Origin: Alphaproteobacteria bacterium
GTDB lineage: Bacteria; Pseudomonadota; Alphaproteobacteria; Bin65
NCBI GenBank assembly: GCA_963665695.1
Contig: OY762427.1
Span: forward strand, 627,268 to 691,267
Length of the DNA: 64,000 bases
Direction of reading: 5' to 3'
Of this stretch, positions 4,571 to 15,760 are shown one piece after another. The stretch's first letter is position 1. Every line of letters starts with the position of its first letter. Under the pieces are notes generated by a model that worked only from the letters and a program-made list of their open reading frames with translations, did not search any database and was not told where the DNA came from. The translations under genes were made by a program, and so were the position numbers.

Positions 4571-5061
4571 CGCGCCGCACGCTCATCGTTCTGCTGATCG
4601 TTTCCGGCGCGCTGAACCTGTTCCTCGTCGGGATCGTCGCGGCCAGCGTCATCGTTCATTGGGGCGGGCCGGAAACCGCGCGCGGCCCCGGCCCGCGCAC
4701 GGCCTTCCGCCTGTACCGCGCGGTCGACGGCCTCGACGAACCGGAGCGGGCGCGCGCCCGCGCCCTGCTGGAAGAGAAGCATCCGCAGATCCGCGCCAGG
4801 ATCCAGGCCATCCGCGCCGCGCGGCGGGACCTCAGGCGCCGCATCCGCGACGGCGCCGTATCGCCCGAAACGGTCGAGTCCGGCTTCCGCAGCCTGCAAC
4901 GGGCCCGCGGCGAAGCCCAGGCGGCCCTGCATGCCCTGGTCCGGCAGATCGCCGAGTCCCTGACGCCCGACCGGCGCCAGCGCTTCTACAGCCAGGCCTA
5001 CCGGCCGCGCGGCAAGAAACACAAGCGGCGCAAGGGCGACAGGGGCGAAAGGCGCGAGTAA
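4567..5061 (+). CDS. CpxP/Spy/ZraP-like periplasmic protein (LTxxQ family), membrane-anchored
   Basis: ATGA overlap with the anti-sigma stop. N-terminal TM helix. LTPDRRQRF (LTxxQ-type) motif. Basic C-terminal tail. Confidence 0.55.
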   Translation: MTRRTLIVLLIVSGALNLFLVGIVAASVIVHWGGPETARGPGPRTAFRLYRAVDGLDEPERARARALLEEKHPQIRARIQAIRAARRDLRRRIRDGAVSPETVESGFRSLQRARGEAQAALHALVRQIAESLTPDRRQRFYSQAYRPRGKKHKRRKGDRGERRE

Positions 5062-12434: not shown

Positions 12435-13144
12435 CGACCTTCGTTCTGGTGCATGGCGCCTGGCACGGCGGCTGGTGCTGGCGCGACGTTGCGGACCGTC
12501 TGCGCGCAGACGGCCATGCCGTGTACGCGCCGACGCTGACCGGGCTTTCCGACCGCTCGCACCTGCTGACGCGCGAGACCGGCCTGGAGACCCACATCCT
12601 CGACATCGTCAACCTGCTCGAATGGGAGGAGCTGGACGATATCGTGCTGTGCGGCCACAGCTATGGCGGGATGGTCGTCACCGGCGCCGCCGACCGCGCG
12701 GCCGGGCGGCTCCGGGCGCTGGTCTATCTCGACGCCTTCGTGCCGGCGGACGGGCAGTGCGTCAACGATATGGCCCCGCCCGAGCGCGTCGCGGCGTTCG
12801 AGAGGTCCGCCGCGGAACGGGGCGGCGGCTGGAAGGCGCCGCCCCTGCCGGCGAGCGCCTGGCTCGACGATCCGGCCCAGCAGGCGTGGGTCGAGGCCAA
12901 GGTGACGCCGCACCCCCTGCGCTGCCTCACCGAACCCATCGAGCTGTCCGGCGCATGGGAGGCGGCCGGCCGCAGGATGCACATCCTGGCGAGCGCCAAC
13001 GACCCCTCGCCCTTCCACGCGATCCACGAGCGCGTAGCGTCCGAACCGGGCTGGCAGCGCCGCCGCATCGACGGCCCGCACGACCTGATGATCTCGCATC
13101 CGGAGGAGACCGCCGCGCTTCTGCTGGAAGCCGCCGAACCCTGA
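12431..13144 (+). CDS. Alpha/beta hydrolase (methylesterase/salicylate-esterase-like)
   Basis: HGAWHGGW oxyanion region and a GHSYGG nucleophile elbow. ATGA overlap with the upstream epimerase. The start is inside the long artefactual ORF 10343..13144. Confidence 0.7.
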   Translation: MTTFVLVHGAWHGGWCWRDVADRLRADGHAVYAPTLTGLSDRSHLLTRETGLETHILDIVNLLEWEELDDIVLCGHSYGGMVVTGAADRAAGRLRALVYLDAFVPADGQCVNDMAPPERVAAFERSAAERGGGWKAPPLPASAWLDDPAQQAWVEAKVTPHPLRCLTEPIELSGAWEAAGRRMHILASANDPSPFHAIHERVASEPGWQRRRIDGPHDLMISHPEETAALLLEAAEP

Positions 13145-13234
13145 ACGCCGACGAGGCCCTGCGCCTCCGCGGGTCGGGTTGGGAGGGCGACCCGGACCGG
13201 ATGCGCCGCGACCGCAGCCGGTGAGGACCTCTGC

Positions 13235-14080
13235 CTAACGTTTCTCCAGTATCCCCTTGATTTCGTCCATCTGGCGCTGGAGGGCTTCCATACGCTGGAT
13301 CAGGGCGGAGGCTTCGGCCTCGGTGACCGCGTGCATCTCCGCCTTGAGCGCGGCGGATTCGGCCTGGCTCTGCTCGGTCATGGCGTTGACGATCACGGCG
13401 ATGAACAGGTTGATGACGGCGAAGCTGGTCATCAGGATGAACGGCACGAAAACCATCCAGGCGCCGGGATACTGCTCCATCACCGGCCGGACGATGCCCA
13501 TGGACCAGCTTTCCAGGGTCATGATCTGGAACAGCGAATACATGCTGTCGCCGACCGTGCCGAACCAGTCGGGGAACGCCTTGCCGTAGAGCTTCGTCAC
13601 CATCACGGCGAAGACGTAGTAGACCAGCGCCAGCAGGGCGATCACGCTGGAGACGCCGGGGATCGCCGCCATCAGCGCCATCACCACCTTGCGCATCGAG
13701 GGAACGATGGCGACCAGCCGCAGGACGCGCAGGATGCGCAGGGAGCGCAGGACCGCAAGATCGCCGCTCGCCGGCGCAAGCGCGATGCCGACGATGATGA
13801 AATCGAAGACGTTCCAGCCGTTGGTGAAATAGCGCCAGCCGAAGGCGAACAGCTTGGCGAGCAGTTCGGCGACGAAGATCGCCAGCACGGCGTCGTCGAG
13901 GAACAGGAGCAGCGGCCCGGCCCGCTCCGTGACGCTTGCCGAGGTTTCCAGGCCGAGGGCGATCGCGTTGAACACGATGACCGCGGTGATCGCGCGCGTC
14001 ACCCGCGGGCTCTCCATGAAGACGCCGACCCGGCGGCGCACCCGGTTGAGCGGCGAGGTCGGCTCCGGCAGCGCGGTCAC
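13235..14080 (-). CDS. Bacterial voltage-gated sodium channel, BacNav/NaChBac family (paralog 1)
   Basis: Six-TM architecture. S4 with Arg every third residue (LRSLRILRVLRLV). Selectivity filter TLESWSM, as described for NavAb/NavMs. C-terminal coiled coil. GTG start, with GTGA overlapping the stop of paralog 2. Confidence 0.85.
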   Translation of the reverse strand: MTALPEPTSPLNRVRRRVGVFMESPRVTRAITAVIVFNAIALGLETSASVTERAGPLLLFLDDAVLAIFVAELLAKLFAFGWRYFTNGWNVFDFIIVGIALAPASGDLAVLRSLRILRVLRLVAIVPSMRKVVMALMAAIPGVSSVIALLALVYYVFAVMVTKLYGKAFPDWFGTVGDSMYSLFQIMTLESWSMGIVRPVMEQYPGAWMVFVPFILMTSFAVINLFIAVIVNAMTEQSQAESAALKAEMHAVTEAEASALIQRMEALQRQMDEIKGILEKR

Positions 14081-15072
14081 GGCTTGTCCGCCAGCAGGGA
14101 CTTGAGTTCGCGGATCTCGGCCTTGAGCGCGCCGATCTCCGCCGTCAGCTCCCCGGTCTGGGCGTCGACCTTGTCGCTCAGGGTCTCCGTCCGCGCTTTC
14201 GCTTCCTCGGTCAGCTTCATGGTCTGCTCGGCGATGTCCTGTTCAAGCGTGTCGCGGGCCTCTTCGAGATCGTAGGCCTGCTGCTCCTGCATGGCGTTGA
14301 CGATCACCGCGATGAACAGGTTGAGCACGGCGAAGCTGGTCACGAGGATGAAGGGCACGAAGACCAGCCAGGCGTTCGGAAAGGTCTCCATCACCGGGCG
14401 GACGATGCCCATGGACCAGCTTTCCAGGGTCATGATCTGGAACAGGGAATACATGCTCTCGCCGACCGTGCCGAACCATTGCGGGAAGGTTTCGCCGTAA
14501 AGGCGGGTGGCGATCACGGCGAAAATGTAGAAGACCAGCACCATCAGCATCATGATCGAACTGACGCCGGGAATGCTGGCAAGCAATGCCATCACCACCT
14601 TGCGCATGGCCGGCACGATCGAGACCAGCCGCAGGACGCGCAGGATGCGCAGCGCCCGCAGAACGGAAAACGCCCCGGCGCTCGGCGCCAGCGCGATGCC
14701 GACGATGACGAAATCGAAGACGTTCCAGCCGCGCCGGAAGAAGCCGAGCGGCCCGAAGGCGACCATCTTGAGCAGGATTTCGGCAACGAAGACGGCGAGG
14801 ATGATCCGGTCCAGCCCGGCGATCAGCCCGCCGGCGTGGGCCATGGCGACCTTCGAGGTTTCGAGGCCGAGGGTGAGGGCGTTGACGGCGATGAGCGCGG
14901 TGACCGTCCACTGGAAGTGCGGCCCGTCGATAACGGCGCGCAGCCGGCCGCGCAGCCCGGCCGCGTCGGCGGCGGGCTCCTTCGAGGCCTCCGGTCCTTT
15001 CTTGTCGGCGCGGCTCCGGCCGGCCGGCGTCTCGCCCGGCCTGATGGCGCCGACCCAGCGACGGGCTCTCAC
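14077..15072 (-). CDS. Bacterial voltage-gated sodium channel, BacNav/NaChBac family (paralog 2)
   Basis: Same architecture (S4 LRALRILRVLRLV, filter TLESWSM, long C-terminal coiled coil). Start placed at GTG 15072, which has GGGAGA 9 nt upstream. The listed ORF start at 15309 would overlap the divergent YHS gene, and that extra N-terminus is low-complexity. Confidence 0.8.
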   Translation of the reverse strand: MRARRWVGAIRPGETPAGRSRADKKGPEASKEPAADAAGLRGRLRAVIDGPHFQWTVTALIAVNALTLGLETSKVAMAHAGGLIAGLDRIILAVFVAEILLKMVAFGPLGFFRRGWNVFDFVIVGIALAPSAGAFSVLRALRILRVLRLVSIVPAMRKVVMALLASIPGVSSIMMLMVLVFYIFAVIATRLYGETFPQWFGTVGESMYSLFQIMTLESWSMGIVRPVMETFPNAWLVFVPFILVTSFAVLNLFIAVIVNAMQEQQAYDLEEARDTLEQDIAEQTMKLTEEAKARTETLSDKVDAQTGELTAEIGALKAEIRELKSLLADKP

Positions 15073-15289
15073 CCCGGATTCTCCCTTGCATACCGACTGT
15101 GGCGGGATCGGTCGTTCGACGGCCCGTGTTTTAGACGGCGCGGGCGGCAGATCAACCCGGACGCCGCGTCGCGCACGGATAGCGGCGCGATCCGGCCTCA
15201 CAGCCGCGTCGAACGGTTTGGGCTGAATTCCCGGTTCGCCATACCCATATAACACACCGAACCGATCCCCCGACCGCAGGGAGCCTCCG

Positions 15290-15760
15290 ATGACCCCGAC
15301 TCGCCGCATCTTTCTCGCTGCCGCCCTCGCCGCGCCGATCGCGGCCGTTGCGGGCTATTACGCCGTGGCGCCGGCCACGGCCGCCAAGCCGGAAATCTTC
15401 GCGCCGGACGGCAAGGCGATCCGCGGCTACGATCCCGTGGCCTATTTCACCGAAGGAAAGCCGGTCGCCGGCAAGCCGGAATTCACCCACAAGTGGAAAG
15501 GCGCGACCTGGTATTTCTCCAGCGCCGCCAACCGGGACAGGTTCGGGAGCGACCCCGGACGCTGGGCGCCGCAATACGGCGGCTACTGCGCCTACGGCAT
15601 CGCCCAGGGCTATGCCGTCAAGATCGAGGTCGACCAGTGGTCGGTCGTCGACGGCAAGCTCTACCTCAACTACGACCGCAGCGTGCAGCGGACCTGGAAA
15701 CGGGACATTCCCGGTTATATCCGCAAGGCCGACAGGAACTGGCCGGGCGTGCTGAAATAG
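15290..15760 (+). CDS. YHS-domain protein with Tat-type signal peptide
   Basis: RRIFLAAALAAPIAAVAG signal, followed by repeated YHS/TRASH-like Y..KW/Y..Y motifs. Confidence 0.7.
   Translation: MTPTRRIFLAAALAAPIAAVAGYYAVAPATAAKPEIFAPDGKAIRGYDPVAYFTEGKPVAGKPEFTHKWKGATWYFSSAANRDRFGSDPGRWAPQYGGYCAYGIAQGYAVKIEVDQWSVVDGKLYLNYDRSVQRTWKRDIPGYIRKADRNWPGVLK

Follow-up and report, generated by a model that had tools for sequence, protein, structure and literature searches.

A conserved pair of overlapping sodium channel genes in sponge-associated alphaproteobacteria and the loss of either partner in related genomes

In a 64,000-nucleotide stretch of an alphaproteobacterial genome (GenBank assembly GCA_963665695.1, contig OY762427.1, positions 627,268 to 691,267; hereafter the window), two adjacent minus-strand genes, here termed up and dn, each encode a complete bacterial voltage-gated sodium channel (BacNav) subunit, and the stop codon of up overlaps the start codon of dn. 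We report that this two-gene operon is old and vertically inherited in sponge-associated alphaproteobacteria, and that either of its genes has been lost in related genomes that retain the other. Where both genes are kept, we favour, with a probability of about 55%, a reading in which they would supply two Na+ channel populations, partly redundant and alike in the pore, that differ in how they are gated or regulated.

Results

Two BacNav genes with overlapping ends

The up gene occupies positions 14077-15072 on the minus strand (331 aa; GTG start 15070-15072, TGA stop 14077-14079) and dn positions 13235-14080 on the same strand (281 aa; GTG start 14078-14080, TAG stop 13235-13237). The TGA of up and the GTG of dn share the tetranucleotide GTGA at 14077-14080, read directly in the minus-strand context aag-ccG-TGA-cc. 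A preliminary description of the window had reported two complete, adjacent minus-strand channel genes and this overlap, and both observations hold, the open reading frames (ORFs) being intact and their products matching solved BacNavs over the full length. The orthologues of dn have their start codon at the equivalent position, with ATG in L004, L006, L015 and L026 (loci of related genomes are numbered with the prefix L). No third channel copy was found in the 64-kb window.

The start of up had to be corrected. The longest ORF form spans 14077-15309 (410 aa); it underlies the earlier suggestion of an N-terminal low-complexity region of ~100 aa. In the five closest relatives (L001, L002, L003, L005 and L021) protein conservation begins at the GTG at 15072 (M/V-RARRWVGAM-RPGET...), and 5' of the equivalent codon the frames diverge or meet stops. 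Database homologues (P0001-P0025) likewise begin MRxRRWVGA, and the 410-aa form would run over the start of a divergently transcribed YHS-domain gene at 15290. Start conservation and this overlap exclude the low-complexity region, which is an artefact of the longest ORF in GC-rich DNA. A Shine-Dalgarno-like sequence, AAGGGAG (15081-15087, minus strand), lies 8 nt 5' of the corrected start, and its (A/G)GGAG(A/G) core is kept in the leader alignment. With this start, the N-terminus of up is ~26 residues longer than the short N-terminus of the NavMs-like dn.

Channel family membership and protein features

Judged by every sequence-level criterion of the family, both products are ordinary BacNavs. 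Pfam Ion_trans (PF00520) matched dn at residues 29-240 (E 1.5e-40) and up at residues 131-345 of its long form (E 5.9e-44); no NCBIfam model matched either protein. The preliminary description had proposed an alignment to known BacNavs as a check, and here dn aligned over its full length to NavMs (5hvx, E 3.6e-78) and to NavAb (3rvy, E 2e-68), and up over its full length to NavMs (5hvx, E 4.4e-81). The two proteins of the window are 55% identical in pairwise comparison, and the value is 54-64% within any one genome.

The S4 arginines at every third position, the identical TLESWSM filters and the C-terminal coiled coils noticed earlier were all recovered in both genes. The S4 arginine ladder consists of R139/R142/R145/R148 in up (14629-14658, minus strand, as for all features of the two genes), invariant in an alignment of 21 up-type proteins (alignment A1), and of R112/R115/R118/R121 in dn (13718-13747), which aligns to the S4 of NavMs. 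The selectivity filter TLESWSM covers residues 215-221 of up (14410-14430), where T215-S220 are invariant in A1, and residues 188-194 of dn (13499-13519), where it aligns to the NavMs filter. The filter stretch FQIMTLESWSMGIVRPVM is common to both genes and the same as the NavMs/NavAb filter in the alignment, and the filter FQIMTLESWSMG is present in both up and dn. Both proteins also carry the charge-transfer residues, namely the E of S1 (GLETS), the F-x-x-E of S2 (FVAE) and the D of S3 (NVFDF), all invariant in A1.

Each C-terminus ends in three clean heptads with a hydrophobic spacing of 4-3-4-3-4. The core positions, assigned from heptad spacing, are L309, I313, L316, I320, L323 and L327 in up (14092-14151) and L260, M264, L267, M271, I274 and L278 in dn (13247-13309), where the alignment to NavMs extends to residue 278. 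The two proteins differ in what precedes the coiled coil: its distance from S6 is ~48 residues in up versus ~26 in dn, which makes the neck of up ~22 residues longer according to the sequence and an AlphaFold2 model. This single-chain model of up, computed from the 21-sequence alignment, has a mean predicted local distance difference test score (pLDDT) of 63 and a predicted template modelling score of 0.34; it is too weak for a fold search and was used solely for N-terminal disorder and the helical C-terminal domain. At this low overall confidence, residues 232-328 are modelled as one continuous helix (pLDDT 85-89 over 270-320) and residues 1-36 as disordered (pLDDT 33).

Residues 1-20 of up (15013-15072, minus strand) and the N-termini of P0001-P0025 follow the motif M-R-x-R-R-W-V-G-[AS]-x-[KR]-x-x-[ED]-T-P-S, after which comes a variable, charged and probably disordered linker. 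It would be pure speculation to see in this motif a cytoplasmic peptide on a tether, acting for instance in inactivation or targeting. Three features characterize the up subfamily, namely the N-terminal motif, the long acidic neck and the divergently transcribed YHS-domain neighbour.

Distribution, age and selection

A genome scan with dn returned 22 close loci, mostly from alphaproteobacterial or 'Rhodospirillaceae' metagenome-assembled genomes, several of which are named for sponges or for sponge-study bins (e.g. Spongia_Bin9); protein searches and context look-ups added L025, L026, L112 and L113. Up and dn stand in tandem in ten genomes belonging to four sublineages: the window, L001, L002, L003, L005, L021, L025, L026, L112 and L113. 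The survey for the same coupled arrangement, also proposed in the preliminary description, found the 4-nt stop/start overlap (xTGA) of the window in eight further loci (L001, L002, L003, L005, L021, L025, L026 and L113), that is in nine of the ten tandem loci. The tenth, L112, has a 14-nt spacer with a Shine-Dalgarno sequence (GGAGA/AAGGAA).

Orthologue identities of up and dn drop in parallel, from 95/96 through 81/87 and 74/82 to 62/70%. Compared with the window, up is 81% identical in L025, 74% in L026 and 75% in L113, and L112 is the most distant with 62% for up and 70% for dn. The number of synonymous substitutions per synonymous site (dS) is similar for both genes, the ratio of nonsynonymous to synonymous substitution rates (dN/dS) is 0.10-0.28 for up and 0.07-0.26 for dn, and the frames of both genes stay intact over about 0.2-0.95 synonymous substitutions per site. 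The parallel fall in identity, the similar dS and the low dN/dS together indicate that the two genes have been co-inherited under purifying selection. Intact frames and low dN/dS also exclude that either gene of the window is a pseudogene, an outcome that had been named as one that would undo the original interpretation.

The two genes are not products of a recent duplication, as the preliminary description's picture of diverging duplicates might imply. Bootstrapping of a neighbour-joining tree built from 119 non-redundant BacNavs gave the core up clade 91% support and recovered a clade uniting up and dn in 0 of 100 replicates. This result and the 54-64% identity within genomes rule out a recent tandem duplication and indicate that two old BacNav subfamilies have been juxtaposed. 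A same-codon test for gene conversion between up and dn gave the same codon at 55-90% of shared residues everywhere, from GC-rich codon bias.

Transcription and translational coupling

Alignment of the leaders of L001-L005, L021, L025, L007 and L015 revealed a conserved block at 15128-15170 (minus strand), consisting of the inverted repeat GACGC-G-GCGTC (15160-15170), a -35-like TTGATC (15150-15155), a 16-nt spacer and TAAAAC (15128-15133). The TTGATC-N16-TAAAAC arrangement, found solely by this alignment of relatives, is conserved in tandem loci and in those single-gene loci that keep the leader, even after deletion of up. We regard the block as a putative operon promoter and operator. The inverted repeat is perfect and lies immediately 5' of the -35-like TTGATC; it could be an operator for a regulator. 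A scan for promoters and terminators found no promoter-like site inside the pair and no terminator within or after it, and a scan of 12800-15600 against Rfam found no riboswitch or leader RNA family, the only match being a chance one to a long non-coding RNA (E 0.56).

The sequences in front of dn differ between genomes with and without up. No canonical GGAGG Shine-Dalgarno sequence precedes dn in the eight tandem loci that were read, where GGCGGA, GGCGCA, GTGGCC or GGCGGC stands instead, whereas lineages with a deleted up have a canonical one, reading GGAGGA throughout one lineage of 11 members and GGAGGG in L012. Co-transcription of up and dn, proposed in the preliminary description, is thus likely in view of the conserved overlap, the conserved leader block and the lack of any internal promoter-like or terminator-like site in the scan; coupled translation, proposed with it, is likely in view of the overlap and of the Shine-Dalgarno contrast between tandem and up-deleted lineages. 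A 4-nt overlap alone is no sign of a protein complex: the up-type genes of L027 and L112 also overlap, at their start, the gene before them, which is unrelated.

The gene that shares the upstream region with the operon encodes a YHS-domain protein (15290-15760, plus strand; Pfam YHS 2.8e-07). This divergent neighbour is also found in L001-5, L021, L025, L026 and L028-L031, and within 2.5 kb in L027 and L112. A YHS-domain gene is constant beside the up-type BacNav down to 47% identity and occurs twice in L029-L031; in several relatives the YHS gene is itself adjacent to an RHH_4-domain gene. We know of no functional link between the YHS-domain gene and the up-type channel.

Loss of either partner

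The dn gene occurs alone, with relics of a deleted up, in L004, L006-L020 and L022. L004, L007 and L015 retain the YHS gene, the complete leader and the opening codons of up, joined in frame to the last ~15 up codons, a deletion that leaves a relic ORF of 25 codons still ending in the xTGA overlap with dn. The relic (L004:~4925-5003, L007 and L015; e.g. LRIRRTAGAATAGTGKPDCLPEQQP) keeps the up ribosome-binding site and start, and may act as a coupling leader ORF. The L008-L022 group retains only the last 15-30 nt of up, with the ancestral GGCGGAC changed to GGAGGAC, which contains a canonical ribosome-binding site, in all 11 members, and L006 and L017 carry other short 3' relics. In L012, nested among tandem-bearing genomes, a 5'-truncated, frameshifted up remnant of 111 codons precedes dn and its GGAGGG. 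This decayed remnant (L012:5010-5345) corresponds to the 3' third of up, has a frameshifted S6, and lies directly 5' of the intact dn beside a LysR-type gene.

The opposite situation is seen in L027, which is without dn and collinear with the dn-bearing L112 at 78-80% nucleotide identity on both sides, and in L029-L031, where the up-type gene stands alone beside YHS genes. L028, a close relative of L026, has a single chimeric gene composed of up through the P-loop, a dn-type S6 and a truncated C-terminus without coiled coil. The crossover falls where the paralogs are identical in sequence, and the chimera shows that the up and dn paralogs have recombined. Compared with the pair of L026 (6001-7868), the chimera (L028:5001-5876) also carries 5 inserted residues in the S2-S3 loop. 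Judged by breakpoints, up has been deleted on at least four separate occasions, dn is missing in one case, and in one the pair has collapsed through recombination.

From these genomes each protein would appear to work without the other. This pattern of independent loss speaks against both an obligate heteromer and a silent regulatory subunit. The preliminary description had suggested heterotetrameric assembly or a regulatory subunit pairing. An obligate form of the former is contradicted by the repeated clean deletion of up with dn intact, by the absence of dn from L027 and by the solitary up-type genes of L029-L031; the latter is argued against by the same pattern, up-type genes being kept without dn. 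The co-occurrence expected of an obligate heteromeric channel, whether CatSper-like or silent-subunit-like, was not observed, since each type is kept alone in some loci.

Tandem channel arrays elsewhere

As a background survey, we scanned metagenomes with the generic S1 motif NA[LVI]TLGL[ED]T, which gives a broad sample that is not specific for the up type. Eighty BacNav loci were obtained; a channel gene was found in 79 of them, and 33 had at least 1 kb on both sides. L097 (1364-4286) contains two similar same-strand BacNav genes, both with TLESWSM, separated by a PPK2-like gene; this pair arose by a more recent duplication and shows no translational coupling.

L065 (1869-5205, metagenome contig Ga0272482_10002145) has four consecutive same-strand, single-domain Ion_trans genes of 274, 266, 268 and 278 aa, which are 38-72% identical, lie beside ThiC- and ThiD-like genes and overlap by 4 nt at the first junction. 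Their filters read FQTMTGEAWPD, FQIMTGEAWPD, FQIMTGEGWPE and FKVMTQGWPE, the last without the Glu, and the array is a candidate for a four-subunit asymmetric channel. L114 (3418-5813) repeats part of this array, with three Ion_trans genes, of which one is a fragment of 170 aa, and a 4-nt overlap at one junction, all within a thiamine-biosynthesis cluster. In the complete genome of a cultured strain, Actinoalloteichus hoggarensis (CP022521.1), L115 (5001-7058) comprises two adjacent genes that are 71% identical, with the filters FAVMTMEGWQG and FEVMTLEGWQD. Neighbouring single-domain channel paralogs thus recur, although such arrangements are uncommon, and the actinomycete arrays, with their differing filters, are better candidates for asymmetric heteromers than the pair of the window.

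Discussion

In the reading that we favour, up and dn would both be transcribed from the 217-nt region shared with the divergent YHS-domain gene, and translation of dn would start at the GTG that overlaps the up stop; having no strong ribosome-binding site of its own, dn would be synthesized in a manner coupled to the synthesis of up. Each protein is a complete subunit, having a four-arginine voltage sensor, TLESWSM as its Na+ filter and a coiled coil at the C-terminus, and would be competent for its own homotetramer, because each type occurs alone in related genomes. Up differs by a basic, probably disordered N-terminal tail of ~36 aa containing the conserved RRWVGA motif and by a neck ~22 residues longer. 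The neck and coiled coil of BacNavs tune gating and stabilise the tetramer, and it is this role, taken with the difference in the cytoplasmic periphery, that leads us to favour two channel populations sharing one kind of pore but gated or regulated differently. Mixed tetramers may arise as a side product of co-translation and would not be required.

Several points weigh against this reading. The proposed difference in gating is read from the N- and C-terminal differences alone, the S4 and the charge-transfer residues being the same. The long co-retention of the genes, their strict adjacency and the overlapping stop and start would also be expected of a heteromeric complex. The pore domains are nearly identical (100% in the P-loop), and nothing visibly blocks co-assembly. 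As to the common promoter, a consensus promoter scan gave no sigma-70 match and did not call the leader block.

The alternative that survives best is a native heterotetramer, in which up and dn would co-assemble (e.g. 2:2) into a channel with properties unlike those of either homomer, the operon delivering both subunits together. The genes have remained adjacent while their proteins diverged to 62/70% identity, with the overlap in nine of the ten tandem loci, dn is without a strong Shine-Dalgarno sequence of its own as long as it is paired, and purifying selection acts on both genes. In addition, hardly anything separates the two proteins in the P-loop, filter and S6, and the pore interfaces should therefore be compatible. 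Against this, either gene can be cleanly lost with the partner left intact and conserved, up-type genes stand alone in L029-L031, and 4-nt overlaps are common between unrelated neighbours, as at the up-type starts of L027 and L112. The identical filters mean that no pore asymmetry would be gained by mixing. Moreover, the coiled coils are offset by ~22 residues relative to S6, and a mixed four-helix bundle would be out of register if the necks are helical, which weakly favours the bundling of like with like. With pore domains so alike and subunits that would be synthesized next to each other, we consider facultative mixed tetramers possible, at clearly longer odds than two separate populations. 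A native mixed BacNav tetramer in the genomes that hold both genes, in which voltage sensors and C-terminal domains of two kinds each would gate a shared pore, is slightly more doubtful still.

Alternatively, the pair could be slowly decaying: one of the paralogs, in most cases up, would be surplus and kept by inertia until it is deleted, and the pairing would have no functional meaning. The minimum of four distinct up deletions, the one absence of dn, the chimera of L028 with its truncated C-terminus and the decayed remnant of L012 would fit such a history. Where present, however, both genes show dN/dS of 0.07-0.28 with frames intact over 0.2-0.95 synonymous substitutions per site, the up-specific N-terminal motif and long neck are conserved in A1, and the pair persists in four sublineages; we therefore hold this explanation to be unlikely. 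That up is a non-conducting regulatory or silent subunit which only modulates dn, like the electrically silent Kv subunits, might be suggested by its extra N- and C-terminal sequence and by its being the gene most often lost while dn persists alone, but this is very improbable given the complete and invariant pore, filter and S4 of up, a match to NavMs as strong as that of dn, and the up-type genes without any dn partner in L027 and L029-L031. The further proposal of the preliminary description, that the pair is an evolutionary intermediate toward multi-domain Nav/Cav channels, finds no footing here, as the filters are identical and provide no pore asymmetry, the partnership is dispensable, and nothing links the lineage to eukaryotic channels.

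NavMs (Magnetococcus marinus) and NavAb (Arcobacter butzleri), homotetramers with solved structures, share with up and dn a single six-helix Ion_trans domain in a protein of ~270-330 aa, four S4 arginines, the TLESWSM filter and the succession of S6, neck and coiled coil (E 1e-68 to 1e-81). Unlike NavMs and NavAb, the channels described here are encoded by two genes of different subfamilies in one operon with an overlapping stop and start, and up has in addition a basic N-terminal tail that is conserved (MRxRRWVGA...) and the longer neck. NaChBac (Bacillus halodurans), the founding BacNav, has its family and architecture in common with the pair. Its filter is TLESWAS, compared with TLESWSM here, and we know of no paralogous operon partner of NaChBac; none turned up in our literature search. 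NaChBac is described as a homotetramer (PMC8677417, PMC6487023).

BacNavs in general are treated as strictly homotetrameric, and their symmetry is regarded as restricting how far they can stand in for four-domain eukaryotic channels (PMC6487023, PMC8677417). CatSper, in which four paralogous single-domain subunits from separate genes form a eukaryotic heterotetramer, provides a model for a mixed BacNav (PMC8677417). The subunits of CatSper are obligate partners with differing pores, whereas up and dn have identical filters and either gene persists where the other has been lost. Concatenated BacNav oligomers have been engineered as NavMs and NaChBac tetramers (PMC6487023). These are BacNav-based models of pseudo-heterotetrameric channels; they rely on artificial covalent links between identical subunits, whereas the pair of the window is natural, unlinked and made of different subunits. 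Our literature search, which was incomplete in coverage, found neither a native BacNav heteromer nor a BacNav operon pair, and heteromers were discussed only for eukaryotic channels or engineered concatemers. What is new is the conserved operon pairing and the history of its decay, the proteins themselves being ordinary BacNavs.

BacNavs serve as the main structural models through which sodium and calcium channels are understood, and a natural operon of two BacNav subunits offers a ready, easily cloned test case for native prokaryotic heteromers and for the sorting between homo- and hetero-assembly. The clean losses, the relic upstream ORF, the ribosome-binding site gained after loss and the chimera already constrain the answer, and the pair is a tidy example of tandem-paralog decay in an operon. 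If mixed channels do not form, up and dn are an ordinary paralogous channel pair. If a native mixed tetramer does exist, it would be the first natural heteromeric prokaryotic voltage-gated channel, and the actinomycete arrays, with up to four tandem genes bearing different filters, would be further and more asymmetric examples.

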